A DNA stretch of 26,893 bases from Geosiphon pyriformis uo1 (taxonomy: Eukaryota; Fungi; Glomeromycota). Below the pieces are notes generated by a model. It was not told where the DNA came from, did no database searches, and saw only the letters and a program-made list of their open reading frames with translations. Below are positions 1 through 26,893 of this stretch, in pieces. Position 1 is the first letter of the stretch; the number at the start of each line of letters is the position of its first letter. Made by a program: the position numbers and the translations under genes. The stretch covers positions 1 to 26,893 of the forward strand of contig JAAOMT010000306.1 in the NCBI GenBank assembly GCA_016748015.1, in the 5' to 3' direction.

Positions 1-175
1 TAATTTGATCATCTTACTTTCTGTTGTACTAATTGGATTATTAATTGAATCGTAATATGTAATAAATTAATTAAATAATAAGTGATAATTTGGATTGATA
101 TTAACATATTAATTATTGATAAGAATTATAAAAATAATTTCATGCTAATTAATAGCTAAAATTCTACTGGTAACA
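1..175 (-). repeat. LTR family B, partial 3' LTR (runs off the window edge)
   Basis: Minus strand from 175 reads TGTTACCAGTAGAATTTTAGCTATTAATTAGCATGAAATT..., alignable to the starts of LTRs at 22057 and 25147; preceded by a purine tract. Confidence 0.8.
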
Positions 176-505
176 TAATCTCTTTTTCAAAACTAAGCTC
201 TGTCGAAGTCCAAGCACTATCTGTAATGTCAAGATAGTGGTCCAAGATGATTGAAGTGATTTGTCTGAAAATTGTTGAAATTTCAGTTCTGTGAGCTTTC
301 CAATGTATTGTATTTTCAATAGTTGAAGTATTGGGCTTTGTAGGATGTTTTCACAAGTATTAAACAAATCATAGAGTCTAAAAGCTGCTTTAAGTTTGTA
401 GTGAATGTTTGTTGATCCAGCTGCTGTCTTGAATTCATTGTGAATTTGTTTTTGTATGGCTTCTGGAGTGAGTCTTAGATATTTTAAAAAAGAAAGAAAA
501 GTCAC
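164..505 (-). pseudogene. C-terminal part of extra ORF (ORF3) of family-B element, unknown function
   Basis: 113-aa open frame running through the PPT into the LTR; decayed second copy at 24856-25158; motif AFRLYDLF...LKIQYIGKLTELKFQQF aligns to E2 ORF3. Confidence 0.55.
176..188 (-). other. Polypurine tract of family-B element
   Basis: Minus strand GAAAAAGAGA-TTA directly before the LTR TG; same arrangement at 25134-25146. Confidence 0.65.
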
Positions 506-518
506 ATCTTTTTATCTA

Positions 519-1674
519 TATCAAAAACACAACCAGCAACAAGGAAAAACCAAAACTACTTTATAAAATTATAACCAAAATTCTTTCAATTAGTCATTAA
601 AAAAGTGTGGTGTTTAAATACCCACTTTGAAAACAAATTTATATAAATTATAAAAGAATTGTAAAAGTAAAACATAAATGAAATAGATTTTAATTAAACA
701 TTTTTATTGTTGAGACTATTTTTTAACAAGATAATATTTTATTACTTATTTTTATATTTAACAACTTGTTCAATAAAACAAGACTTAATATGAAATAGTG
801 ATAACACATAATTTAAAAGATCAAAAGTAATAAAACAACTTGAAATAGTGATAACAAATAGGTAAAAGATTATAAACAATATTATTCCAAATAGTAATAA
901 AGAATATGGGAAGACATATTTGAGATTATGATAACAAGTATTTAGAGCATAGGAAAGAGAAAAAAAGAGTAAAGAATAGAGGAAAAAACTAACTACTTAC
1001 TATAAAACTATAACAAAGAGTTGGCTCAGTATTGAACTAATATTTTTCTGAGCTGACAAAAAGGCTGTATATATAGTTAAATTATATTAAATCTACATAC
1101 TATATTAAAACTATTTAAGATACATCAATTATTTATATATTTTAATTTAATCAATTCATAATAAGCTTACTTGACATGTTATTTTCTAAGAACTAGTAAT
1201 TTTAAGATAATCAGATTTAGATGGCTGGATTTAAAACATTAATCATAAATCAATAATACCAATTGTGATTATGATCAACATAATCAAAAGTATATCAATT
1301 AATTACATTTCTTGGTAACTACTTTTAAATATTGATTACAGATCTGAAATGTTAGATTGTTTTAATAAAAGCATATGAGAATTTTGGAGCATAACAAAAT
1401 CTGTTATTATCAGATTACATATGTCAATCATTCATTTTTATTGGTGTTTCTTAGTTTGTCAAGATTTTTTTGTATTCAACTTAGTTAAACTGTTAGATTG
1501 TACTATATTTTTTTGTTGTAATCGGTTTAATTACTGATCATTTATTTTAGATTGCTGGCTGATTTTGTTGATTAAATGTGATGATATAGGTTTTTTTTGC
1601 ATGATTTTGATATTAATTTTTATTGTATATGTTGTAATTTTTGCATTAAAAAGCATGAAAATTTTCTAATAACA
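519..1674 (-). repeat. Putative LTR of a fourth family (D); left boundary uncertain
   Basis: Non-coding ~1.15 kb block starting TGTTATTAG on minus exactly where E1 integrase breaks; TATATATA near 1068; ~50-bp tandem duplication 791-890. No TSD or second copy in the window. Confidence 0.35.
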
Positions 1675-3340
1675 CTATTTTGATTGGTTTCAATGATTTG
1701 CTGGGTTTTGTTTTTCCTCTCTTCTGACAAACATTACAATTTTAAACATATTAAATAATATTTAAATACATGATTGGCCAATAGTATCTTTTTTTGGTTT
1801 TTTTTATAGTTGCTTCTTTATTGAAATGTCCTGCTGTTGGATTAGCATATATGTTATATAGTATTGTTTTCTTTTCTGGTTCTGTAATTACTCTGGTTGG
1901 TTAATCTGAATTTCTTCTGTTTTTTTAATAAAGTATATTTTGGTGAGTAATAAAGTATTTTGATTGTTGTTTTATGTTGTTTTGTTTTTTTTGAGATAAT
2001 TTTTCCTTGAACTGTTAAGTATTGATATAGTGTTAAAGTTGTTAGTATTTTTGTGTTTATTTTTTGTTATATTTTTGGGTTAAAATATTTTTAAATTTGT
2101 TTTATTTATAACAAACCATTAGTATTTTTATTTTTATTTTTTATAATGTACAATATAAGTATATAATAAAAGTTTTATTTTTTATCATACATAATAATTG
2201 TTTCTAAATTTTTGTTTTTAAATTGATGTCAATTCTTTGTGATTAGTGTATATCTTGAATTTTTGGCTTAAGTATTTTTTCTACTTGATAAATGCCCAAT
2301 AAATAGTTAAGTATTTTAATGCTGGTGTTTCATAGTTTTTTTCAGTTGGGCTTAAGCTTCAGCTAGTATATACTACTGAATGTTTTCTTCTACCCAGTTT
2401 TTTTTGAAATAATATTGCTTTCAATGCTTGGCCTAATATATTTGTAGTAATAATAAATAACTTGCTGTAATCTGAATAGATCAAAACTAAAGCTTGAATA
2501 AGTCTTCTTTGCAAAATGTCAAAAACATCTTGTTAAGCTTCTATTTATTCATATTTTATGTTCTTGGCTTAAAATTGGTAGAATGGTTGAACCAGTTTAG
2601 AAAAGTTTTGGATGAAATGGCAATAATATTCTGTAAATCCCAAAAATGCTCTTAATTCTGTAAGATTTGTTGGTACTGAAAAGTTCTTAACAATTTTTAA
2701 TTTATTGAAATCTGTTTTAATGCTGTTTTTGTCTATGACATGTCCCAAAAATTTCAGTTTTGTTTTGCCAAAGAAACATTTGGTTGTATTTAGTTTTAAT
2801 CCAGCTTTTTTTAATTTCTCAAACACTTGCTATAGATAATAAAGATGATTATCAGATGTTTTTAAGAACACATTGGTGTTATTCAAATAAACTACTACTG
2901 ATTTCTATAGTAACTTAGTATAGACAATTTCCATGAGTCATTGGAAGATGGCTGGTGTATTGGTTAAGCTGAATGGCATGATTTCAAATTCGAAATTTTC
3001 TTTTCTTGTGATGAATATGGTTTTTTTTTTGTCTTCTGGTTTTATAGCTACTTGTTAGTAATTATTATCTAAATTGAGTATTAAGAATCATTTTTTTTTT
3101 CAAAAGTATCAAATAATTTTTGAATCTGTAAAGTCAGATAACTGTTTCCACAAATAATACTATTAAGTTTTTTATAATCTACACAAAAGTAAATTTTTCT
3201 ATTCTTTTTCTAAACTAATACCACTGGTAATAATTATAGACTTATTAATAGTTGAATTGGTCTATTGTTTAGTATTTAGTTAATTTCTTATCAGATAGCT
3301 TTGCTGGTGGTATTTTGTATGCTTTTTGTTTAATTAACAT
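1675..3340 (-). pseudogene. pol: E1 pol: reverse transcriptase, RNase H and N-terminal integrase (many stops/frameshifts)
   Basis: EFEIMPFSLTNTPAIFQ, VVVYLNN (YLDD after two G>A), KCFFGKTKLKFLGHVI, LRAFLGFTEYY; RNase H LSPTEKNY; integrase AGHFN...RYYWP...CNVCQK ending at PIKI. Confidence 0.9.
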
Positions 3341-3800
3341 AACATCTCTTGTTTTGATTTAATGTTAAATAATGTCAGTTCTGCCAAATTCATTTTTATT
3401 GGCAAAGATATCAGTAAAATTGTTGGTAGTATCTTGAACTGTATACATTGAAGTGGATCTAAGTTTTTTATATTTATTTGTTCTAATTTTTTTGGTTGGA
3501 GCAAATAACATTTCTCTTGTTTATAGATTGTTTGTAATATAATATTCACATATCTGCACAGTTATAGAAAATCTGAAATGGGGTTTGGTAGTTAGTTTTC
3601 AGCTTCTGGGCTTAAGTATTTGATGGTGGTTTTTTTTGGCATTTCAATAATGTCTCTTATAATGTTATAGACCAGAATTTTTATGTGACTAGAGTTTTTA
3701 ACTAGTATATAGAGATTGGTGAATCCAATTTTTTCTGATTCACAAATTGTAGCTTCTGCTTCAAAAATTTGAACTTGATCTTTTACTTTTTTTTTATGTA

Positions 3801-4292
3801 CTAGTTGTATGATAAAATAAAAATTGATTGATGGATGAAAATAATTTCTTTCTTGTTAATAACTTCTTCTTCTGCCAAATTAATTAGTATGTCTATTTTA
3901 CCCATGAATTTGAATCCATTTATCTTTCTTGCTGTTATTCCTAATTCCTCTCTCTTTCTTACTAATACTAGTTGAACTATTTTAACCAGAGACAAGAATA
4001 TTGTCTGTGCTATCTTTTCATTAGATTTTACAGTATAGATCTTTTCTGAGTCGTTTTGTAGTATTGCAATAATATTTTTTACATATTCTGCATTAATGAT
4101 TCCTTTTCTTATATTGATTTCTCTTTTTGCTAAACTACTCCTAAATTTTAGTTGAATTATTATTGTTGTTAGAATTTCCAGTGCTACTTTCAAAACAATA
4201 CATGTGCATGAATGTGATTCTAATTTTATGGCAACTTTTTTTGGATATTTCAAATCAAACTCTACATTGATATTATGTATGTATTCTGACAT
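3801..4292 (-). pseudogene. dut: dUTPase domain within E1 pol
   Basis: Five trimeric-dUTPase motifs in decayed form: EFDL, RSSLAK, GIINAEY, EKIAQ, RKINGFKFMG (RGxxGFGSTG). Confidence 0.85.
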
Positions 4293-4554
4293 AATATCTT
4301 CATTGTTATTGTTGAACCATTTTAATTTTTGGATTTTTAAAAGATCATGGAGTGTGATGTATTGTTTGGAGTTTAAATTAAGGTCTGAATTATTGCTGTT
4401 GTTATTGCTATTTTGAATAGAGCTAAAGCCATTGTTATTGTTATTATTGTTATTATTGAAGTTTAAATCTGAATTAAATAATGATTCTAATTCTGTTTTG
4501 TAGCTGCTAATTGGTTTTTTTTCTGAGATTATGTAGATTATGTGTAGTAATAAA

Positions 4555-5200
4555 TTGTAAATAATGTTACAATTATTACAATACTAGAAATCACATAAAA
4601 TCAAACAGTGGTTACATAAGTGAGTATTAAGCTGTTTTAAATATTGTTTTTGCTTTTTTTTAGTAGATGCTAATTCTTGATAATGTTCATAGAATTGTTT
4701 TGGATCCATAATGTCAAAAATAATATTAGAGTTTGGGATTTAAATGCTCTCTTCAGGTTCTGATAAGTTGTTTTTGATTGTTTTGATTTTTTTAGAAACA
4801 TGCTCTCAATTTTGACAATTATCATTCTCTAAATTTTATTGTCATTATAGAAACAGCCATCTAAACATTGTACAGCTCTCCTCTAAACAGCATTTATTGG
4901 CATTTTTTTTTTTACCCAATCACATATAAGAATCGTGTATTGACATAATTTGTCACACATTTTTCTATGACCAGAAATATTGTTCCATATTTTTTGTCTA
5001 AGAAAGTCTCTCTACAAACAAAACATAATTTGTTGTCCTATTTTTCTTGCTGTTTGGATTGTCCAAAACATTCAAAAACACATAAGTGACAATAATATTT
5101 GGTTGCTATTGGCCATTTCTTATTGTTACTACAACATGTGCTTATTGTAAACAATTTTTTGTCACATTTAACACATATAAGCTTGGATTGATGGTAAGTT
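4555..5200 (-). pseudogene. Cysteine-rich (multi CxxC) domain between protease and dUTPase in E1
   Basis: Manual translation: LICVKCDKKL...YYCHLC...K*DNKLCFVC...CDKLCQY...CNHCLILCDF*YCNNC. Confidence 0.7.
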
Positions 5201-5399
5201 GAATTGGAGCAATTGGTAGCATATGGAGTATAAATAGAAGTTGTTGCTTGTTGTTTTTTTTTTTTTTTTTTTTATATAGATACCAATAATAAATAATTGT
5301 GATCATTGTCAGTCTATAAGACTTGATAAGCTTTTTAGATAGGTTTTTTTTCTTCTTCTTTAAACTCAATCAGTAGTATTTGTGTAGTGCTTGTTTTGA

Positions 5400-5790
5400 A
5401 ATGATCACATATGGCTGGTACTTGTGTGTGTTGGCTATTTTGACTGAGTAATAACTTCTGAGTGATCCAGTCAAGTACAGTATTAGTCTTGGACAGCCAA
5501 TTATTACTAACTAACACTTAGTATTGGATGGCTTCTATGATGAGGATTTTGATTGGCACTATGATGTTATTAACTTTAAATGAGAAGTCCTTAATCTTGT
5601 CAATTAAAGTTTTTATCATTCTATTAGCAGTAATAATTTAAATACTGGCAGTGTGATCAACTTAGTGACTTAATTGGTCCATAAATTGCTTAGTAATAAT
5701 GCTATTTGCTAACCCATTATCTAGAATTAATTTGATGGATTGACTATCAACTTTAGTATTAGTGTACATTGTGATAATTGGTTTAGCATT
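5400..5790 (-). pseudogene. E1 retropepsin-type aspartic protease
   Basis: IKLILDNGLANSII (LILDSGS back-mutated) near 5700-5735 and VLVSNNWL (GNDWL). Confidence 0.8.
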
Positions 5791-6369
5791 AAAAGCAGCT
5801 CTACTAAATAATAGCATTTTTATTTAGTTTTCTAATTTGAATGAAAAATGGCTACTAAGAAATTGTTATTAGTGATAGTTGCTAAAGATATGTTGTTTGT
5901 AAGTGGCTTTTGGTTAGTTTTCTAATTGTTAAATAAGACATTTTTTGAAGTAACCAGAAAACTTAAATAGTTTTGGGAATTTGGGTTTTCTGTATACCTG
6001 TTTTCTGAACTCCACTGACATAATCTTGATAGCTGGGTTAATAAACTGGGGATTGGTTGGTGTATTACTATCACTGATTTTTAGTTTTGTTGTGTATGTA
6101 TGATTCTTAGTGTTTGGTTTTTGGATGATATTTAAGCTGGGTTTTGTGGCAGTGTTAAGATAAATTGAAATTAATAAATTACTTGTGGCTATGGTTGATA
6201 AATAACTAGGGCTGAGATTTAATAGATTGGAAGTATGTATATTGGTTGTTGCATCATTTGTAAGTAATAAAATTAATATTGATCTTAATTTGGAGAATAA
6301 TTCGGAGTTTGAAATTAGCAATCAGAGTTTTGATATTGATTGCTCAATCATTAATTATTTAATCTTAAT

Positions 6370-8070
6370 CAGCAACCTATTTGTAAGTATTTTTGTTTAC
6401 TATAATAGTGGCAGATACACATCTCTTGTTGTCACTGTTGAGTTAATAATAATAGACACAACTGATTCTAAACTTGATTAGAATTTTCTGGATTTGTATG
6501 TTATTGTGGTGGCTGATAAATAGTCTAATTATTGTTAGTTAAGTATTTCTCTAATTTTTGATTAATAGATTCAGTAAATTGTTTCAGTTTCAAATCTAAG
6601 TCAGATAATCTGTTTATTACTAGATTAATGGCTTGGATGTAATTGGCTTTTAACTTAGCTGATTTAAAGTCTCAGACATAAGTGACTGTAACTTAAAGTG
6701 TTGCTAGATGTAACAGACATACACATTGCAAAATATTGCTGCATAATCTGCAAATAAACTGATTCAAAATTTGTGTAACTGTAAAATAATCAGCATTAAT
6801 AACTTGTATTTGGTGCAAATTACAATAGAAGCATCTCAAGTAAGTGGTAATGACTTCAGTATCTCCTTGCTTAATGGTGATAAAGATATATGCCAAGCAA
6901 TTAATGCCATTATTGTTGCTAAAGTATTTTAAAAATTCAACTTTGAATTTATTAAAGTTTTGGGGTTTCTGGACCAAACTCTAATATCATGAGTTAGTAA
7001 TATCTTGAAAGAAGTATGAGATTGTCTGTAATGCTTAGGCATTATCACATCATTGAGCCATGCTTGAATATTATTTTTTTTACTAGTAAATTTTTCAAGT
7101 TTTTTTATTGGTGCATAGGCCATTGGTATGAGTAACAGTAGTGGTTGTGGTTGTTGTTAAAGTTGTTGCAGAGATGGTAGTTGTAATAGTTGTTGTTATA
7201 TAGCCAGTAGTACAACTGGTAGTAAATTGATCATAATTACTGGAGGTAGGTTTTGAGGAACAATAAAAGCTGGATTTAGATTGTTCAGGTTTTGCTGAGT
7301 TTGAACATTTGGAGTTTAAACTTCCAGATTTTCTAAGATCAGATTTTGTTTATTAATTTCTTAATCATTGTTCTTCTTTTCTTTGGAGTTGGTTATTTCT
7401 TAAAGACTAGTAGTTCCAAAATCTGGTTGTGATAGTAATAATTAAAATTTTGATGGCATTGATTATTGTGAATTAAATCTCTCAAAATAATTGCCATAGG
7501 TTTCTAATAGTTTAGTTTTTTCTTGTTTACTTTGGAATAGAATTCTGACTAAAAGTGTTTTTATGATTGTTGTAAATATGCCTGCTAATGTAATGTTGAT
7601 GGTATTTTTAGATGTGTGATAATATGATGGATTGATTGAGAAATTGATTTTTGGTTTCTTCCAAATAAGTGGTTGTAATTGCTTTAGTGTTCCTGCTGGT
7701 GTTTTCAATCTTTTTTTTCTTTGTCTGCAAAGATAATAAAAAATCATTGTTTGGCATATTTTTCAATTTTCTTGTTTATTTTTGTAATTAGTGGTAGAAA
7801 TAAACAGTTTTGTGGAAGTATAGTACTTTGGAGTAGTTCATTGAAAAAATTGTTGAAAACAGATTCTGGATCTTCTTGATTTCTCAAGTAATATATAATT
7901 TTTTTATTGATGTAATAATTGAAAGCTGATTCTGTTGGCCAATTACTATTTGTTAATCTGAAATGAATGTGATAATGTTAGAATAAAAATTTTGCAAATT
8001 CTAAGTGGTTTGTTTCTATTTCTTCTGATTTTGTTACTGTTTTAGATGATTGTTGTTGGTACTGTTTTTC
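6370..8070 (-). pseudogene. gag: E1 gag with long N-terminal extension, capsid-like domain and decayed CCHC knuckle
   Basis: MAYAPIKKLEKFT...AWLNDV, IKQGDTEVITTYL, QILNQFICRL (retrotransposon gag pattern); CHYYSKQKYLQIGC at ~6371-6412 has CX2CX4HX4C spacing after transitions. Confidence 0.75.
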
Positions 8071-9547: not shown

Positions 9548-10043
9548 CCATGATTAAGAGCTATTAATCCAGTATTATTAAGTATTAGCAATTATTAACA
9601 TGAATTGTTAATAAAAAAAAGATAAATTATAGTAATAATAAGTATTTTATTGATATTTGATGTTTTCATTTCAAGTTATAAAATATTATTGTATGAAGGA
9701 ATGAATAAGAAAATTGAAACTAGAGATTCTAAATTAAGAATTTTTTGTATTAATTCTGTCTTTTCTGGTTTTAACACTACTGCTATATATACATAAATCT
9801 TGTTATACAAGATTCTTTGAATTCTTTAATTTTCTAACCAGAAATTTTAAAATTTCTGGAATTCTGCAATTCCTTAAAAGAAATCCTGGAATTCTGAAAT
9901 CTTGCAATTTCTCCTAAGGAAATTCTGTAATTCTGCAATTCTGCAATTCTTTAACAAAAATCCTAAAATTTCTTTTTACTACATCTATTTCTGATTGGCT
10001 AATTTATATATTAATATGTAATTCATATATTTTATAAGTAATA
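9548..10043 (-). repeat. E1 5' LTR (family C), 5' half (U3)
   Basis: Minus start TATTACTTATAAAA matches the copy at 24229; contains TTAGCCAATCAG, GAATTNCAG arrays and TATATATAGC. Confidence 0.8.
9991..10002 (-). promoter_or_regulatory. CCAAT box in LTR-C U3
   Basis: TTAGCCAATCAG; retained at 24269-24280 and as TTAGCCAATTAG at 8596-8607. Confidence 0.5.
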
Positions 10044-10472
10044 CTGTCAATTTTTTTTTCAGCTTGGTGGCCAGTATCTTCTGATAAGTTATTTTCAATT
10101 TCAGTTTTCATTTATAAGTGTTTTTCTAATATAAAAATATTTAAAAATAAGAGTATATACATGATTTTATTTATTAAGACAACAGTTGAAGCTTTTATTA
10201 AGTTGTAATATTTAATAAAATGTCAATAAGGGCAAATAAAAAGTTTTTTTTTAAAGTTTGCTTTAAAAGTTTTGATAATTGAATTCCAAAGTAAATTTTT
10301 GTGTTTTTTTATAAGAGTAATAATTCTGAAAATTATTTACTACTGGTGTCATAGTTTCTTTTTGGGTGTAATTAATTTAACTTTTATTGATTATTATGAA
10401 TAAATTAGAAAGTATTTTCAAAGCTAACATTAATTTTTAAGATATTTTTTGAATGTTTCAGAAAATAATCAT
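10044..10472 (-). pseudogene. E3 ORF3, N-terminal part, cut by the E1 LTR
   Basis: ATG at 10472, downstream of integrase; LSNLFIIINK and KYFYIRKTL align to E2 ORF3 YPNATLIIGK and LYGCLSEII after reversing transitions. Confidence 0.4.
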
Positions 10473-10774: not shown

Positions 10775-11028
10775 ATAATAGTGTTTCAATTAATTTTTAA
10801 ATGCAATTTTTGCTAATATTTTGTCATTCAGTCTTAATTGTATAATTTATTGTCTAAGATTTTATGAATATAAAATAGTTTATTCTATTTATGTTCAATT
10901 TTCCATTTTATTGTTTTTTGGTTCTAATTTTGTGTAAGAAAACTTTGTTTTTAACTTTAAATTCATAAGTAACTAGCAGTAGTTTGTTATCATGTTGTTT
11001 TTTTATTGGACTTGAAAGTGTTTAATAT
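10775..11028 (-). pseudogene. pol: E3 integrase C-terminal (GPY/F-like) region
   Basis: ...IKHFQVQ*KKQHDNKL...FKVKNKVFL...FYIHKILDN...N*LKHYY; continues the frame from 18687. Confidence 0.65.
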
Positions 11029-11646
11029 TGTTACAGTTAAAACTCATAGTTTTTATTAGTTATCACATGTATTAGCCACATTATTTTTAGAAAAGTAATC
11101 ATTGACCTGATCATTGACCACTTTTGATAGCTATATAAGCAATGAATCTCTTAGCTGTAGAAAAGCATATAATAACAAGCATCTGAATAATCAAGAATAA
11201 ATAAAATAACAACTTTTATCTCAATCCTTCTCTTATTGCTAATTTCTCTTTTTCTATCTTCAAGTATCTGAACATCTTAAAGATAAAAGATTACTTGTTC
11301 TTTTTCTGACATATATAATTGTAGCATTTGAAAATTATTTGAATAAACATGACTGAAAAGCACAAGTTGATACTTGATATTGAATTCTAAGAGTGCTGAC
11401 ATGAAGCATAGAATTATACCAGTGGTGATCAATTGTTGACAGTATAGATTATTTTTCTACTTACAAATTCCCCAGTTACCTTTAAAAAAAATAGCAACTG
11501 AGATATTTTATAAGACTGATCTTGCACATTGAATCCATACTCATTCAATTCACTCTTTAAAGTTGAATTCCCCTTTGATTATTTCTATTACTCTACAATC
11601 CTGTTCTCCTTTGCTATCTATTAGCTTGTTATTCCAATCCATAACA
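11029..11646 (+). repeat. E2 5' LTR (618 bp)
   Basis: TGTTACAG...CATAACA; ~93% identical to 17972-18682 apart from two indels; TATATAA at ~11132. Confidence 0.95.
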
Positions 11647-11652
11647 TAAAAG

Positions 11653-11670
11653 TGGTGCTCTCTGTGAGGT
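11653..11670 (+). other. E2 primer-binding site (probably elongator tRNA-Met)
   Basis: TGGTGCTCTCTGTGAGGT fits the complement of CCA, discriminator A, acceptor stem and CUCAC T-stem strand typical of eukaryotic elongator tRNA-Met. Confidence 0.8.
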
Positions 11671-11698
11671 TGTCAAAATCTATTTTGTTTTCTATTGT

Positions 11699-13251
11699 AT
11701 GGGTGATTATTCATACCTGCCACAACAATCAGAAGAACACTTTAAAGCATACAACAAAAATGATCTAAACTTTATTGAACTTAATCTTTTGCCCTCCTGT
11801 TTGATTTGCTTTCCCATTGAAGAACAATCCAGCAGACAATTGCAAGACTTTGGAACTGGTTCTTGAACAAGCATTCAGCTGAAACCTACACAGCTTATAC
11901 AATCTATTACTTTAACCAAGCTTATTTTGAAGATGACTTTAAAGGAAGAAACAACAGTATCAATCAGCTTTTATATTCTGTAATCTTTGAACAACAGCTC
12001 CCTAATTTTGAATATCTGAATTATCAAATTCACATTTGGATTGCTGTCCATCAATCAACAGAAACTTTTTTTGAAACAGAAGAAAAAAGCTATCAAACCA
12101 CTTCTGTTTTTGATTTCTTTTCAAGTGAATCAGAACACTCCACACAAACAGTTACACCTGAACCAATGGCTTAAAACCCTCTACAACAAAACATTCTGAT
12201 TGCCCTCCAAGATATATAGACTGTTTTAGGGCAAAGAAACAACACCCCATTACCATTATTCAGAGATAATGCCCAAGATCCAATTGAATGGTTGGATGAC
12301 TTTGAGAGAGCTGTTACAGCCAACCAATACGATGATAAGTACAAGTTTCAAATTGTTGGTGGCTACCTCCAAGGCTCCCCTGCTACATAGTTTTTACAAA
12401 AAACTGATGCTAATGCCCATCAAAAAATCATTAGATAGATGTCAACAAATGCCAGAAAAAACAACATCTCTTTCACAATCCAGTTTGAAAACAAGTTCAG
12501 AACTCCAATTTTGATATCTAAGTGGTGCATGGAATTAGAAAGAAAAACCCAAGGCTCAGGAGAAATAGTAACTAAATATGCCAAAGCAATCAGAAAATTG
12601 ATCAAGCGTGTAGACTCTGGAAGGAACTGGACAGAAAAGCAAAAAATTCATTTCTTCACAAAAAGACTGAGAACTGATTTATCTTATGCTCTTTGGCCTT
12701 TTTTGGCTCTAAAAGATAACCCTACAATAGACATGACTATTGAACTTGCCCAACAAATTGAAGACAACCAAAAAATGCATTTGGGGTTTACACTTCCAGT
12801 TTTTGCTCTTGTTTCTGTCATGGCTCCTACTCCTCAAATGGCTGCTACTTCTTTTGCTGCCCAAACTCAAGACCCAAATGAACAGTTAATAGATAGACTT
12901 ACAGCAAATCTTGCTTGGCTATTAGAACTATTAGCCCAAGCAGTTTGAGATAATCAACAACCCCAAAGACCCAGATTTGAACCACGCTTCAATCAACCTT
13001 AGCAACCATCTTATCAAAGACAACAAAATTATAGCCCACCTGTGTGCTATCACTGTGGATTAACTGGATATTTTTCAAGAGATTGCAACAATTTTCCCTT
13101 ACTCCTTTCAGCTTCCAAAAACAATGATAACCAAAACAACAGAACTATTAACAACAATGCCTCCAATCAAAGACCTAATCATGCCAATATCAATTTCTTT
13201 GGAGAGGATCCCCTAGTTAAAGCCACTGTTTATTAGCCTTTAAACTGGTAG
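11699..13251 (+). pseudogene. gag: E2 gag (one frameshift near 11850, several in-frame stops)
   Basis: ORFs 11863, 12439 and 13042 share one frame; QDPIEWLDDFERAVTANQY, QGSGEIVTKYA, KIHFFTKRLR; knuckle CYHCGLTGYFSRDC (H>Y). Confidence 0.9.
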
Positions 13252-13279
13252 ACGCACCTTCAAAGGGTGAAAGTGCAAG
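13239..13279 (+). other. Predicted -1 ribosomal frameshift signal at the gag/pol junction
   Basis: T TTA AAC in gag-frame phase, gag stop two codons later, pol frame is -1 and open; hairpin CACCTT-CAA-AGGGTG follows. Confidence 0.7.
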
Positions 13280-16200
13280 CCAATCAGAAGAAAACCCTTT
13301 TTACACCTTTAACTTAACTAATGATAATCATGACATAGATGAACTAGCAATTAACACCACAGAATCAACCAAAAAAAAGAAGAAAGCCAAGGTTGATTTT
13401 GTTTTAGATTCCAACAAAGCCTCAACTTCCACTGCTGATAACAATAAGCCACCAAAAGCCAAAGTTTTTAAGAATTTTCCAAAATTGGAACCTCCAGAAA
13501 TTATACAAAAATCTGGACCCTGTTCTGTTGTCAAAGATCTCATGGAAACCCCAGCACACATTATCTTTGGCCAGTTAATGACCTATGCACAGTTCAGAAA
13601 AGAGCTCCGCAAATCTCTAATCCCCAAAAAAAAAACACCAAAGACCAATAAATGCCCTCGCCAAGCTGGACTTGCTGACAACAGCAATTTTACTCCTCTA
13701 ATTTGCAAAGCACAAGTGGCTGGTTACTTCATTGACTTGATCCTAGACAGTGGATCATCTGTTAGTGTAATTGCCAAACACTTCTTTGAAGCAATTGGCA
13801 GAAAAATTGATGAACCTTTCACCCAACCAATGACCAACATATATGGTGACAAGAAGAAAGGTCTGGGCATTGCCAAAGCTATTCCTGTCCACATTAATAG
13901 CATCAATATTGAAACTGACATGGAAGTTTCTAAAGCTAAAGAATACACCATCATTGTTGGCAATAAGTGGCTCAAGAAAGCAAAAGTTTTACTTGATTAT
14001 GAACTTTGTGAGCTAACCATAAGATGTGGTGAAAAACTCATTGTGGTTAAATGTCGCCATTGGACAACTCCTCCAGCAACCAAACAAAATCAAAAAGATG
14101 AGCAATCAGAGGAATCAGATGATGAAGAGAGTAATGAAGAAAATGAAGAACAAAAAGAAACTGCTGAACTCGTCTACACCACCTTCACCAACAATGACAA
14201 GCCACTAGACAATGTTAAAGCTAATAAAAAGAGAATCATTGTAAATGACAAGCTGATCTGCTGGCCCTACTATGATATTCTAAGAAGAACCTTTGACCAA
14301 AAGCCTGGCAAGAAAGCCAAATACAGTTATTGGCGGCATGGCTCTTGTGCCCAGTGCTGGTGCAATAAACTTTTGTATTCTCTAAGTGATGAATGCAAAT
14401 CATGCCTGATCTATTACAAAGATTGGAAACCAATTAGCCTAATACCAAGAGATGAATTAAAAGAAGTACAGAAGTTCTTTGAAAATGAACCACCTGAGAT
14501 CCAATCATTAATAGTAAAACAAAAAGAACCCTCCCTAGAAGAAAAAAAGATAGACATTGAGAATCTGTTGGCAAGAAACAGCCCAGTTATCTTAAAAGAA
14601 AGTGATACCCCAAGACAAACTCATATGATACAACACACCATTACCACCAAAGAAACTTGCCCTATCTATTTGAAGCCTTACCAATCTAATCACCGAAATG
14701 ATAAGTTCATCAAAAAAGAAATAAACTAGATGAAAAAACTTAGATTCATACAAGAAACCAAGAGTGAATGGGCTTTCCCAGTTGTAGTGGTATTTAAGAA
14801 AGATAGAACCCTATGCTTCTGTGTTGACTACCACTAATTAAATGCCATCACTGAAAGAGACATGTACCTACTTCTCAAGATTGATGCAATGCTGAACCAA
14901 TTCAAAAATGCTGCTTTCTTTTCAACCATTGATCTAACTGCTAAATTCTGGCAAGTAGAAATGGATCCAGAAAGCCAGAAGAAAACCACCTTCATCATCA
15001 AGTATGGCACCTATGAATTCACAGTCATGCCTTTTGGTTTCACCAATGCCCCTCCCACCTTTTAATGCTTAATGGATAAAGTATTTGAATCAGTGAAAGA
15101 AAACTTTGTTCTGGTCTATCTGGACGATATAATGATGTACTCAAAAACCTGGGATGAATACCTTGAACATTTGCAAAAAGTTTTTGATCTTCTTAAAAAT
15201 GCAGGTCTCAAGATTAACCCAATCAAATCTTTCTTTGAAAGACAATCCACCCAATTCTTTGGCCATCTTATTATAAAAGATAGAATCTTCCCTGATCCAG
15301 CCAAAGTGGAAAAAGTTCAGAACATAAAACAACCAATAAATGTTCATGAATTACATTCTTTCCTTGGTTTGGTCTTTTATTATCGCAAATTTGTTAAGAA
15401 TTTCTCCAAAATTGCCTCTCCACTCAATTAGCTACTTAGGAAAAATGTCAACTACCATTGGGACACACATCAGCAGAAAGCATTTGAAACTCTCAAAGAA
15501 AAATTGGTTACAGAATCTATTCTCAAGCAACCTGATCTGGATCAACCTTTCATCCTTTACACTAATGTATCTGGCTATAGACTTGGTGCTGTTCTCTCAC
15601 AAAAAGATGAAGATGGCAGAGAACATGTAATAGCCTATGTCAGTAAAACCCTTACATCAGCAGAAAAAAATTATTCAGTTACTGAGCAGGAATGCTTAGT
15701 AGTAGTTTGGGCTACCAGCTACTGAGATAAGTATTTTCTTGGTGTAAAGTTTTTGGTGATAACAGATCACCAAGCTTTGGTTTGGCTGCACAACAAGAAA
15801 AGGCTAGAACATAAACAGATAGCCTGCTGGATACTCCACTTGGATGAATTCAACTATGATATTCAACACCATAAAGGAGCTAATCATCAAAACGCCGACG
15901 CTCTTTCTAGACTTACCATCAAGTGACAGTACAACCTCTCAAACCAAACCAACTTAATTATTAGTAATTCTCTTACAACTAAACACGATAATAGACTTGG
16001 ACAACTACTCTGCCTTAATGGAATTTTTGGGTAAAGGACAATACCCACCAAAATACACTTGACAACAAAGAGAACATTTGTGCAAACAATCAAATTTTTA
16101 TTTGATCTGCCAGAACCAATTATATAAAAGAAATAGAAAAAATCCTGACCACCTCCAGAGAGTCATAAGATTTGAAGAAAGAAAAATTGTAATCTACAAT

Positions 16201-17303
16201 ATGCACACTGATTCATTAGCTGGACACTTTGGAAAAACAAAAACAATTCAGAAAACTCTAGCTCACTATTATTGGCCTACCTTAAGAAAAGACATTGCTA
16301 AGTACATCATAACCTGTGATACCTGCCAACAAAAAGGAAAACCCAATTGCAAAGAAGACATCCATCCAATCTCTGTTGGCCAACCTTTTGACAGAATTGG
16401 TATAAATGTTGTTGGACCATTAACAGTAACTCTTGATGGCAACAAATACATTATTACAGCTACTGATTATCTTACAAAGTGGGTAGAAGCAAGAGCTACT
16501 CCAGATTAAACAGCAGTTTCCATTGCTAATTTCATTTATGAAGATATCATTTGTTGTCATGACTGCCCCAAAGAACTTTTATCTGATAGAAGAAGAGCTT
16601 TTCTTAGTACACTAGTTAAAAAACTTTGTAGAAAAATGGGAATACGTCACAAACTTTCCTTCTTTTATCACCCCCAAACAAATGGCCTAGTGGAACATTT
16701 CAATAGAACACTGTGTGAAACCTTAGCCAAAACAAGTAAAGAAACAAACTTATTGGACAAAATACTGTCTTCAGCTTTGTTTGCTTATAGAACTGTGAAT
16801 TATAACATAACAAGTTATGAACTCTTTTATCTGCTCTATGGACAAATGGCAATACTATCAATAGAAACTGATATTGAGACAATACTCTTTGAAGAAATCA
16901 CAATAAGGAATACAAAGACATTTTGCAAAGAAGACTTGATACTATTCTTGACTTATTGGTAGAGGCAAGGATAATTGCCTTTGAAAAGATAAAACAGTTC
17001 CAAAAGAAGCTTAAGAAAAAGAAAACCTATAAAACACTTTTCTTAAGCATTGGTGACTTGGTTTTGAAATACTGTTCAGACAAAAACAATGTCTATGGTA
17101 ATAAATTCTCTAGCTGATGGAAAAAACTCTTTATAGTCAACAAAGTTCTGAACAATGGTTCTTATATTCTTCAAGATCAATCCGGAACAATCTTTAATGA
17201 TCATTCTGTTTATGGCACGTGACTCAAGAAATATCACAAACAATCTAATTGGTTACCTGTTGTGGTAATACCAACCCAAATGATCAGCAAAAATCAGATA
17301 TAA
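13239..17303 (+). pseudogene. pol: E2 pol: protease, insert, RT, RNase H, integrase; no chromodomain
   Basis: LILDSGSSVS, IIVGNKWL; FCVDY, MPFGFTNAP, VYLDD; YTNVSG...EQEC...TDHQAL...NADALSR; HTDSLAGH...CDTC, IGINVVGP, LSD, NGLVEHFN. Confidence 0.95.
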
Positions 17304-17344
17304 ATAAATGCACCACTTCCAAAACAGAAGTATCTTCAATTAAC

Positions 17345-18002
17345 ATGAACAATTATTTTCTGGATCAAAACATTCAAAACGCTTTCTATACTTTTCATAA
17401 GTATTAGTTTAAAAACTATCCAAATGCTACTTTGATTATTGGAAAACAAACTACAATAACTGACAACAGTAGAACACATACTGTTATCAGACCAAAGAAA
17501 ACAACTATCAGAAGAGAAAGAATTGGTAGCAAAATGAATAAGTATTTGCTGGAAAGTATAACAGCAGCAATACTTGCACCTTTCATCACAATTGGAAAAA
17601 CAATTAAAAAAATCTTGCCCATAAACAAAAAACTTGTCATATGGAAGACAATTAAAACTCTATGGTTGCCTTAGTGAAATCATAGAAGACATAAAGCTCA
17701 TAAAGAAAACAACTTTTGAAATACAAGTAGAAATTTTGGACATTGTACGATTAGATGTCCCAAGAGTTTTGACCATTGCAAGAAGAGCCAAAACTCTTAT
17801 ACAAAGATTTGGTCTCTTGGACATAAAGCTCATTTTGCCTCAAGTTTTATATACCTTATTCACAAAAGACTTCAACAAACTAGTTAGTTTTAAGTTAGAT
17901 AAAATCTTTCAAATAGAGTATCCCCTAAATAATTTGATTTCACTGGAGCTCAATCTCTTTAGAGAGAATGATATTACAGTTGAAACTCATAGTTTTTATT
18001 AG
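17345..18002 (+). pseudogene. E2 extra ORF3 downstream of pol, unknown function, not env-like
   Basis: ATG at 17345, one TAG, then ORF 17432-17674; one extra base in an A-run near 17605-17632 would join it to ORF 17634-18002 (~218 codons); runs through the PPT into the 3' LTR. Confidence 0.55.
17961..17971 (+). other. E2 polypurine tract
   Basis: AGAGAGAATGA directly before the 3' LTR. Confidence 0.7.
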
Positions 18003-18682
18003 TTATTACATGTATTAGCCACTGATGTCATATGATTAGCTACACTATTTTTAGAAAAGAGATTATTGACCTTATCAATGACTTGACCATTGACCTGACC
18101 ATTGATCTAATCAATGACCTGATTAATGACCTAATTATTGACCTGATCATTGATCATTTTTGATAGTTATATAAGCAATGAATCTCTTAGCTATAGAAAA
18201 GCATGTAATAACAAGCATCTAAATAATCAAGAATAAATAAAATAACAATTTTCATCTCAATCCTTCTCTTATTGTTAATTTTTCTTTCTCTACCTTTAAG
18301 TATCTGAACATTTTAAAGATAAAAGATTACTTGTTCTTTTTCTGACATATATAATTGTAGCATTTGAAGATTATTTGAATAAACATGACTGAAAAGCACA
18401 AGTTGATACCTGATATTGAATTCTAAGAATGCCAACATGAGGCATAAAATTATACCAGTGGTGATCAATTGTTGACAGTACGGACTATTTTTCTACCTAC
18501 AGATTTCCCAGTTATCTTTAAAAAGAATAGCAACTGAGATATTTTATGAGACTGATCTTGCACATTGAATCTATACTCATTCAATTCACTCTTTAAAGTT
18601 GAATTCCCTTTTGATTATTTCTATTACCCTACAATCCTGTTCTCCTTTGCTATCTGTTAGCTTGTTACTTTAACTCGTAACA
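17972..18682 (+). repeat. E2 3' LTR (711 bp)
   Basis: TATTACAG (TG>TA)...CGTAACA followed by TSD ATAT. Confidence 0.95.
18061..18156 (+). repeat. 12-bp minisatellite, 8 units (consensus GATCATTGACCT), in 3' LTR U3
   Basis: Eight imperfect units read directly; only two units at 11097-11120 in the 5' LTR. Confidence 0.9.
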
Positions 18683-18686
18683 ATAT

Positions 18687-21050
18687 AAATAGCTGTTATT
18701 TATTGTTTTTCTTCCAAAGTACTAAGCAAAATATAAGCTCTTTATTAAAGTGTTTTTTAAAAGTTTTCTTAATTAATTAATTATATTAAATATGTTTCTA
18801 CTGTAAAATTAATTGGCAATATTGCTGTTTTTTTATAGGTTAAATTAAATAGTGTGTGTTTTATAGCATCTAGTTTTAGTATTCTGTATATTAATAATAT
18901 TAATAGAATAAAGTTATTTTTATCTTGTTTAAAATTATTTAAAACTTTGGCTAATAATTTACACAATGTTTAGTTAAAATGTTTTATTAATTTATTTGTT
19001 TAAAAATAATAAAATAATAAAAATGATCTTTTAACATTGAATTTTTCACATATTTTTTGTATCAAGTTATTTATGAAATATGTTTTTTGATTAGATAAAA
19101 GTTTAATTGGACATTTATGTTTACAAATAATGTTTTTTTAGATGAAATTTGCTATTAATTTTGCATTTGCTTTTTAAATGACTCTGATTTTAAACTATTT
19201 AGTAAAAAAATTTACTGTAACTGCAATATAACAATTTTTTAAGTAATAATAACTAATAGGTTGATTAAATTGATTCTTATTCTGTCAAAAAGTTGTCCAA
19301 CTTTAATTGGATTTAGAGATTCAATAAAACAAGTTTTTTTTCTTTTTTAATAACTATTCCATAATTCTATATATTATCAAATGTTTTTTTACATGTAAAA
19401 CCAAAAATAATGTTCTAATGTTCTTTAAATTGTACTATTTTTTTCTAAATATGCTAAAGATAAATCTGTGTACATATTATAAAGAATAGTTTCTTTTTTG
19501 TTTTCTTGAATAAGTCTGAGTAAATTGATTGAATTTCTATGATTTTGATAATAAATTTTGTTGTGATAAATAAAATATTGTTTTGTTTAGTATTGTAATT
19601 ATTGTTTTTTAATTAAAAACCAGTTTTCTGACATAGTAATAGTTTCCAAATAGTTTTTAATGTTGTTGTTATTTTCAGGTTTTATTATCTGTTGATTATT
19701 TGTTGTTAAGCTAGTAGATTGTAGTAAAGTTGGTATTGATGCTAATTTTATCTTATTTTTAAAAGATTATTTATGTTTATATATAATTTTTTAAATTTAT
19801 AATAAACAATATATTTTAATTAACTAAAAAGTCAGTTCATTAAGATTAATTTACACTAAGCTTAAAACTCTATTTTTTAAGCCATTTAAGACTAATGTTG
19901 TTAGTTATAATGTCAAATTTATTTTTATTGTAGAAATATTGCTAAAAGTGTTTAAAAGTCTAGATAATAACTGTTGTTTTTAATTTAGTTAAGCTATATT
20001 TGAGTTTTGTTAACTTAAGTATTCTACTGACATATGTAATTATTTGCTCTTTGTCATTGTTACTTATTTGTAATAAGATGGCACCAAAAGCTATATATAA
20101 AGCATTAGTGGCTAATTGAAATCTTTTTTTGAAGTCAAAATAGACAAGAATTAAAGCAGTTATAAGTCTTTTTTTGAAAGTATTAAATATTTTTTGTTAA
20201 ATTGGGGTCTATTAGTTTTTAACATCTTTGTTGATTAGTTAATTGAAAAATTTGGTAATTTTTGAGAATTTTTTAATGAATTTTAATAGTAGTAAGCTAA
20301 TTTAATAAATTCTCTTTATTTTATAGTATTTTGAAGAATTTAAAAGTTTTTAACAACATTAATTGTTTTTAAATTAAGTTGAACTCTATCTTTGTTTACA
20401 ATATATTCAAAAAAAATTAAACTTATTTTTCTAAAGTAATATCTTTTAATGTTTAACTTTAATTTTACTTTTTATAATTATTAAAAAACTTGTTGTAAGT
20501 AGATTAAATAAGCTTCAAATATTAAGAAATAGATATCAGTATCATCAAAATAAACAACTACTAATTGCCATAAAAGTTTTTTGTAAACAATATTTATAAG
20601 TTATTGAAATGTTGCTAATATATTGCAAAGTCTAAAAAACATTATATTAAATTCATAATTCTCTTATTGTGTAATAAATGCTGTTTTGATTTGCTAGTAT
20701 TCACTTTCCAAATCTAAAGTTAAGAAGTACTTGACTTTTTTTAAAGCATTTAACATGTTATTAATTCTTGATAATAGGTAAACATTTTCAAATATAATAT
20801 TATTAAGTTGGTAATAGTCAACACAAAATCAAATTTTCCTATTTTTTTTTGACCAGAACTACTGATAAGACCCAGGAACTTTTTAATAGTTGAATAAGAC
20901 TATTGTTGAGTATTTTTTTCACTTTTTTTTAATAAATTGGTGGCTTGTAAATAAAACTTGATAAGCTTATTGGTATTTTAATAGAACATTTTTTGTGTGG
21001 ATTTTATGTTACATAATATTGGTTTTTCAAGATTATTGTTATCTTTGGTA
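18687..21050 (-). pseudogene. pol: E3 pol: RT, RNase H, integrase (very decayed)
   Basis: SSWVLSVVLVKK, FCVDY, KTAFIT, VVVYFDD (~20545), PIKVGQLFDRI (~19290), TAILPINF. Confidence 0.85.
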
Positions 21051-26071: not shown

Positions 26072-26893
26072 ATATTTCTAAAAATGTGTCATAATTTTCT
26101 AAAAATGTACTTACTTATTAAATACTATTTTTCTATTAGTTTATTTTTATAATCTGTTTTTTTTGTACTTTTTTTCTATGAGTAACAATAATAATAAAAA
26201 TTTCACCTAATGACTTTTATGACCAATTTGGTTTTTTGTTAATTAGAATAGTTTATTTGCTTGGTATTGTTAAGTTTTTTGTAGTTAGTTTTGGTTTGTA
26301 TAAAATATGTTTGTTTTTTTTAAGCATAGACAATAATACAGAAGTTTATATAAATATGTAGTATTGTTTTAATTATTTTAAATAACTGGTCATATATAGC
26401 AAGTATATAAGTTACATTTAATTAGATTTATTTAGTTTGTTTTTGTATACTAGATAGTGATTAAGTTGTATTCATTAATAATAATAATAATAAAAATTAA
26501 ACCAAAAGTTATTTAAATACTATTTTAATTATTAAAAAACAAATTACTATAATTAATAATAATAAAATACATACTATTATTAAGTCAAAAAAATTATTAA
26601 TAGAAAAAAATTAATAATAAAATATATAATAATAATTATATTATTGTTTTTTAATATAATTAAAAAAACAATTAAAAAAATTTATATAAAAAACAAATAA
26701 GCTTTAAATTAATTTAATAAAATTATAAAAAACATAAAACCCTTATAAAAATACAATAAAAATATATCCAATATTTTTTCTTATTTATTTATTTCTCTTT
26801 TTTAATTTTTTATCTTTAAGTATTTAAATATTTGTAAATAAAAAACTAATTGGTATTTCTTAATTTGTATTGTTAAAATTAATTTAAAAAATA

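Follow-up and report, generated by a model that had tools for sequence, protein, structure and literature searches.

ORF3, an accessory gene behind integrase in chromodomain-less Gypsy elements of Geosiphon pyriformis, and its possible role in element regulation

LTR retrotransposons are usually assumed to rely on the transcription factors of their hosts. Most third open reading frames described in them are env-like, enzymes or orphans. Extra sense-oriented ORFs that lie between pol and the 3′ LTR are known from plant elements as aORF-3S (excerpts of PMC7264820), and bdelloid rotifer elements carry ORF3s in that slot (excerpts of PMC5408684); the excerpts describe such genes as env-like or as encoding GDSL esterases or DEDDy exonucleases. 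A 3′ gene may also have a promoter of its own. Foamy-virus Tas/Bel1, a DNA-binding protein, controls both the internal promoter and that of the LTR (excerpts of PMC13220597), and the env gene of the Oikopleura Tor elements is served by an internal promoter (excerpts of PMC4402516). For fungi, the consulted part of a survey reports gag and pol only (PMC3248453). The consulted part of a transposon survey of AMF, which puts LTR elements at 41.2% of the G. pyriformis genome, makes no mention of a post-integrase ORF (PMC11952901).

The gene analyzed here, ORF3, resembles aORF-3S and the rotifer ORF3s in slot, orientation, presence in most family copies and unassigned function, as far as the excerpts go (PMC7264820, PMC5408684). 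Unlike them, it encodes a protein predicted to be small, soluble and helical, belongs to no Pfam family, and is fungal. Like the TRP28 ORF of Retand (PMC11963269, in part), it would be a non-chromovirus Gypsy accessory gene with a predicted DNA-binding product and a proposed regulatory role, but the Retand ORF is antisense, comes from plants and encodes another domain, to which ORF3 has no Pfam match. Sense ORFs in this slot are already known as a kind; a description of this ORF3 family was not found in the literature searched, which did not cover Repbase.

The window, a stretch of 26,893 nucleotides from G. pyriformis, consists of stacked, decayed LTR elements with 15-39% GC. One of them, E2 (11029-18682, plus strand), is a chromodomain-less Ty3/Gypsy LTR retrotransposon (Metaviridae). 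Its 5′ LTR (11029-11646, preceded by ATAT) and 3′ LTR (17972-18682, followed by the target-site duplication ATAT at 18683-18686) are 93-94% identical. Behind the 5′ LTR, at about 11653, is a PBS-like site that was not matched to a tRNA. The decayed gag-pol (11690-17310) comprises Ty3 capsid-like, protease, RT, RNase H and integrase regions, with the Pfam domains RVP_2, RVT_1, RT_RNaseH_2, Integrase_H2C2 and rve in that order; a domain search found no chromodomain in it. In its LTRs, 4-bp target duplication, PR-RT-RH-IN order and PPT, E2 is like other Ty3/Gypsy elements, to which it adds a gene behind integrase. CpG is strongly depleted in E2 (observed/expected 0.11), and all 35 differences between the LTRs in their ungapped stretch are transitions. 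This pattern fits methylation-driven decay. In Rhizophagus, TEs carry CG methylation and give rise to small RNAs (excerpts of bioRxiv 2021.03.30.436303).

Several features of E2 and its neighbors were seen in passing. The ATAT duplication (11025-11028 and 18683-18686) would fit a decayed CpG-centered target site, as a single case. The 3′ LTR contains tandem TTGACC/TGATCA units of ∼10-12 nt (18060-18160), mostly deleted from the 5′ LTR (11085-11120), and the LTRs differ by a further 21-nt indel upstream of this array. At its N-terminus (11690-12174), gag carries an additional domain, in which a C-x2-C-x-P motif precedes F-x2-F-W-x-W; this domain is also found behind the LTR in metagenome elements L023, L027 and L033. 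Elsewhere in the window, a minus-strand element at 1-7900 has a dUTPase domain (3801-4583, minus strand; Pfam E 3e-9) between protease and RT. The minus-strand element E3 was split by the insertion of E2, leaving its 3′ part below 11028 and its integrase on the far side (18787-19577, minus strand).

ORF3 of E2 (17345-18002, plus strand) starts with ATG at 17345 and ends with a stop at 18000-18002, and its 658 nt correspond to 219 codons plus one extra base. The frame is broken twice, by an in-frame stop codon (17405-17407) and by a frameshift in an A-run, which comparison with intact paralogs places at about 17627-17635. This is a dead copy of a 218-aa gene. An earlier reading of the sequence alone had seen ∼218 codons of coding-like sequence between pol and the LTR, and the intact relatives bear this out. 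All 82 protein relatives are 'hypothetical proteins' of G. pyriformis, and 20 are full length, each exactly 218 aa and aligning without gaps, in a set where gene annotation favors open copies. By tblastn, the intact paralog P0009 is 80% identical to this copy across aa 1-97 and 73% identical across aa 80-218. An open frame of 218 codons would arise by chance with P 9e-9 under the local base composition and with P 7e-7 under 40% GC, and estimates overall run from about 1e-8 to 5e-6. A within-family selection test, which contrasted shared with single substitutions across 20 paralogs, gave p 0.47. Against an independent family model, the E2 piece in the window scores 2.3 bits; the signal sits in the intact paralogs.

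Two parts of the protein can be distinguished. A core of ∼90 aa (approximately 17640-17890, aa ∼99-181), which every family member has in common, is basic, helical and predicted to be HTH-like. The N-terminal module (17345-17520) comprises a helix and a β-hairpin in a low-confidence model; it is kept in E2-type homologs and aligns weakly to the B-type described below (E 0.035), and comparison of the modules of E2, B, L068 and L075 gave no significant alignment among them. The window holds one other piece of E2-type ORF3, a short decayed fragment at 26504-26593 (plus strand; 50% identity over 30 aa). Many Geosiphon gene models, among them P0013, P0022, P0056, P0070, P0152, P0154 and P0160, join ORF3 by splicing to pieces of integrase, gag, LINE-like sequence or other ORF3s. 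These chimeric models are likely annotation artefacts.

ORFs in the same slot had been proposed for family B, and both pieces were recovered. The C-terminal half of a family B ORF3 lies at about 156-487 (minus strand), with one frameshift near 263, and reads through the PPT into the LTR, which starts at about 175. A second, decayed fragment that matches B proteins runs from 24832 to about 25166 (plus strand). All 66 matches to B ORF3 are again 'hypothetical proteins' of G. pyriformis. Overlapping partial proteins, read together, give a length of ∼235 aa, and no single full-length record was found within the length range searched. E3 carries the N-terminal two thirds of an ORF3 (9983-10472, minus strand), heavily decayed and with a short 3′ end, meeting its PPT ahead of the last core motif. 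It had been taken as a third type with a 'PNxxxIIGK' motif. Yet it matches B-family proteins with E 1e-15, and intact B copies read P-D-L-S-I-T-I at that point. E3 ORF3 is thus B-type, and the three elements hold two types of ORF3.

We searched for homologs outside Geosiphon. A profile search over 1.84 billion representatives returned 27 matches, four of them remote colinear homologs, and a second round added nine clusters, for 13 matches altogether, all metagenome records. These proteins are colinear with E2 ORF3, mostly at 26-34% identity. ORF3 DNA scans of metagenome contigs and viral contigs gave no match, so the genomic context of the E2-type metagenome proteins P0162, P0165, P0171 and P0172 was read only from their PPT-shaped tails. 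Direct profile alignment of E2 with B was not significant (hhalign E 0.47-0.71, z 1.3-3.0), and metagenome contigs were therefore scanned for the integrase motif. The scan returned 120 loci from 17 of the 64 parts of the contig collection. We assessed the 33 soil-type Gypsy loci with at least 900 nt downstream of integrase.

A post-integrase ORF3 was present in 17 of these 33 loci. Fourteen have a clear core, 11 of which were in the model training set and three (L028, L060 and L063) outside it; the other three encode a minimal version of ∼95 aa that matches the family profile with E 2e-5. Eight more loci have weak candidates belonging to two families (E 0.008 and 0.017). Seven lack ORF3 and have the PPT right behind integrase, and one is cut off. 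In all 21 loci listed (L005, L009, L023, L027, L030, L031, L033 and 14 others), the integrase frame starts behind an in-frame stop, and in most of them a fresh ATG follows within a few codons: this lineage encodes integrase in an ORF of its own.

These loci supply the intermediates that tie E2 to B. The profile of short-type ORF3s aligns with the E2-type at E 2e-5 and with the B-type at E 2e-4 (hhalign), and L068 links to E2-type and short-type alike; L059 ORF3 is a clear B homolog (hhalign E 6e-15). The direct E2-B profile alignment, whose lack of significance the sequence-only reading had named as a refuting outcome, was indeed not significant, and the relationship is recovered only through intermediates. 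The residue register that had been noted between the types (Y-x-x-L/I-G-x-x-L, A-x-R-x-Y-x-L-F and I-x-P/Q...F) was reproduced in an 18-sequence alignment. A family HMM built from 10 metagenome cores only, with columns taken from the joint alignment, detected 14/20 E2 paralogs, 9/9 E2-type homologs and 48/56 B proteins at P<1e-3, against 1/85 reversed decoys; a model from an independently aligned seed behaves likewise. Among metagenome ORF3s, pN (0.38-0.53) is below pS (0.64-0.85) in all 21 alignable pairs, with pS saturated and the protein-guided alignment biased towards low pN. We consider it very probable that E2-type and B-type ORF3 are homologous, and regard ORF3 as almost certainly a real accessory gene. 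The data show where it lies, that it is conserved across families and that some lineages lack it. In an unrooted integrase tree of 38 rows, from which L010, L036, L046 and L072 were left out as too short, ORF3-less rows fall in three places. This would fit an old gene that has been lost a few times. The integrase of E3 is nearest to that of L059 (46% over 79 columns, on a long branch), whose ORF3 is also B-type.

The 3′ end of ORF3 overlaps DNA that the element needs in cis. In E2, the frame reads through the PPT (17961-17971) and enters the 3′ LTR by 31 nt, so that the last ∼10 codons lie inside the LTR. Taking PPT plus TG as the mark of the LTR edge, we counted 6 of 10 intact relatives that likewise read through the PPT, of which two end at that edge and four enter the LTR; the other 4 end just before the PPT. 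In L032, whose ORF has ended by that point, the purine-rich tail and its upstream motif are still present, as they are in elements that lack ORF3. Since the tail DNA is kept without ORF3, the overlap is best described as compact packing against a cis element. A conserved acidic tail was considered as a protein motif and rejected, as ORF3-less elements keep the same DNA. The special meaning first attached to the overlap thus falls away: a sizeable share of relatives stop short of the PPT, and the tail residues are imposed by cis DNA. A GGAGCTC-like motif lies ∼15-25 nt upstream of the PPT (17945-17971 in the window; also L012, L015, L024, L032, L033 and L059), in elements with and without ORF3, and probably serves plus-strand priming in cis. 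Of the LTR overlaps observed, that of L031 is the longest: its ORF3 (442-1131, minus strand) runs ∼90 codons beyond the presumed PPT, through a repeat-rich stretch.

This overlap had also invited comparison with lentiviral nef. Nef has an N-terminal myristoylation glycine and a fold of its own. The likeness is one of position (PPT/3′ LTR overlap in E2, in B and in 6 of the 10 relatives counted above); instead of the myristoylation glycine, E2-type ORF3 proteins have N, S or T at residue 2.

What kind of protein does ORF3 encode? A hydropathy scan of 19 ORF3 proteins found neither a membrane segment nor a signal-like or hydrophobic N-terminus in any of them (maximum KD19 ≤1.37), and each has 0-2 cysteines. 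This agrees with the initial view that divergent families have in common a conserved accessory gene other than env. In the core, K+R exceeds D+E in 18/18 proteins; 8 of 19 whole proteins are acidic (pI 5.3-6.0). Pfam, PHROGs and PDB-sequence searches found no family above cut-off, and no enzymatic or known suppressor domain was found in the ORF3 proteins. In an AlphaFold2 model of P0009 (pLDDT 57 overall), residues 82-181 form an all-helical bundle with pLDDT 66-88, the remainder being uncertain. The B-type model (pLDDT 55, pTM 0.35) matches generic helices only and does not reproduce the fold matches of E2.

Structural neighbors of the predicted core are weak (Z 3.0-5.1) and include KorB, SopB, Spo0J, ParB, VirB, MuA Iβ and Raf1. 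The best 8 of 20 structural matches comprise MuA Iβ, which ranks at the top, Raf1 and ParB/Spo0J, and 7 ParB-family chains are among the 50 matches listed in a separate comparison. ParB scores Z 3.0-4.5, and the N-terminal domains of Raf1, which binds protein rather than DNA, are at or above it (Z 3.2-5.1); the highest Z of all, 5.9, belongs to an unrelated PSI subunit. Foldseek comparison of this medium-confidence model with PDB and BFVD, viral fusion glycoproteins included, gave no match at E≤0.001. The Atlas model of homolog P0162 aligns with DUF1016_N (TM 0.60), DUF3102 (0.55) and ParB (0.50 and 0.53), and with Mucoromycota clusters at TM 0.75 and 0.74; every match is under the Atlas naming bar, and no family is named for it. 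The same core fold is seen in a Mucoromycota RING protein (TM 0.61) and an Ascomycota SET protein (TM 0.72). Exchange between hosts and elements is one possible origin of this distribution.

At the sequence level, Pfam DUF1016_N (PF17761, the N-terminal domain of YhcG) matches 2 of 28 B proteins weakly (E 0.036, below the gathering cut-off), and neither it nor DUF3102 (PF11300) matches any of 33 E2-type or 12 metagenome proteins; ORF3 is below every family cut-off. A nine-sequence DUF1016_N profile aligned the same helix in 5/5 comparisons (E 0.003-0.04; 0.003 for B), and this helix, Y-x-x-I/L-G-R/K-x-I/L, is common to ORF3 and DUF1016_N. Unlike the DUF1016_N and ParB proteins, ORF3 has no nuclease or ParB CTPase domain. 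The N-terminal domain of YhcG is itself uncharacterized in the consulted part of PMC1189080. Taken together, the models suggest that the ORF3 core weakly resembles the HTH domains of DUF1016_N, DUF3102 and ParB. With such a predicted fold and a uniformly basic core, the nucleic-acid binding that had been suggested from the sequence is plausible.

ORF3 is a separate frame. In the 8 loci measured, it follows the integrase stop at a distance of 41-218 nt; it overlaps the integrase end in L032, L060 and probably L047. A TATA-like box at 17299-17305 (plus strand), 46 nt upstream of the E2 ORF3 ATG, is a candidate promoter. TATAWA occurs 35-65 nt upstream of ORF3 in 9 of 22 elements, E2 among them (null 1.8; 0/1000 shuffles); this narrow window was set once the data had been inspected. 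Over the wider range of 25-150 nt, 18 of 22 elements have the box (null 6.4; local shuffle 10.2). TATAWA is also found within 150 nt before the PPT in 5 of 13 ORF3-less elements, and some TATAAA matches come from integrase codons. The ORF3 start has A at -3 in 16/22 elements. We regard the TATA enrichment as a lead for an internal ORF3 promoter, not as proof. Splicing or reinitiation is a possible route of expression as well, and the overlap with integrase also fits reinitiation. In 11 elements, the LTR of one being mislocated, the upstream region and the element's own LTR showed no excess of common k-mers (p 0.38). E2 has TGATCA shortly before each of its TATA boxes (17281; 18144 and 18151).

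We propose that ORF3 is expressed from its own promoter as a short transcript, and that its HTH-like product binds element DNA and tunes transcription of the element; we assign this reading a probability of roughly 0.4. The mRNA would run from an internal promoter behind integrase to the 3′ LTR. Its product, with a core that may fold like the HTH of ParB and DUF1016 proteins, would bind the DNA of its own element. The target could be the LTR or the internal promoter, and the protein would then work like foamy-virus Tas, with the effect being activation, repression or shielding from methylation. Many chromodomain-less Gypsy elements, likely those of mycorrhizal-type fungi, would have kept the gene. 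Tas and Tor serve here as works-like models, in that a 3′ gene is expressed from an internal promoter; promoter and DNA binding are putative for ORF3, which may work like Tas, with no sequence or fold link between the two implied.

Other roles would use the same protein differently. As an anti-silencing or RNA-binding factor, it might keep methylation or small-RNA silencing away from the element's DNA or RNA. The basic core, the CpG depletion with transition-only LTR differences in E2, and the methylation and small RNAs reported for Rhizophagus TEs speak for such a role. However, the copies are heavily deaminated although they carry ORF3, and the protein has no enzymatic or known suppressor domain; we consider this role unlikely. 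Slightly lower still we would place an integration cofactor that binds cDNA ends or target chromatin and steers the stand-alone integrase, replacing a chromodomain. The integrases end ∼180 aa past the core motif, leaving no space for a chromodomain, the end-binding Iβ domain of MuA is the top structural match, and the fold is fused to SET and RING in fungal proteins; L059, whose integrase is nearest to that of E3, also has a B-type ORF3. But ORF3-less relatives in three places of the tree have equally short integrases, which argues that such a cofactor is not required, and a particle component needs no promoter of its own.

The helical core might instead bind protein, as in Raf1, and have a protein of the host or particle assembly as its target in place of nucleic acid. 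The Raf1 scores, which equal or exceed those of ParB, and the acidity of several full-length proteins point that way, but the core is basic throughout and most other fold neighbors bind DNA, making this reading rather improbable. Least credible by far is an env-like or membrane protein, or a frame kept open through cis constraints with no gene at all. ORF3 does occupy the env slot, and its last ∼10 residues are dictated by PPT/LTR DNA. Yet hydropathy, N-termini and cysteine content of the 19 proteins scanned speak against a membrane protein, pN is below pS, and the protein is conserved over its full length in divergent families.

If ORF3 does act as an HTH-like regulator of its own element, a large Gypsy lineage of mycorrhizal fungi might resemble a complex retrovirus in having a regulator of its own, transcribed from a dedicated promoter, that binds specific DNA sequences and goes back to a ParB/DUF1016-type HTH of bacteria or phages. 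The domain might also have spread to host RING and SET proteins, and could explain a share of the orphan genes in these fungi. We hold this wider picture to be doubtful at present. Already, at least 148 clusters of 'hypothetical' Geosiphon proteins (82 + 66) can be reassigned to ORF3 copies or fused gene models, and natural elements with and without ORF3 offer a ready comparison. As an accessory gene found lineage-wide, together with its putative promoter and putative HTH, ORF3 provides a small, soluble and testable protein through which self-regulation of these elements may be approached.
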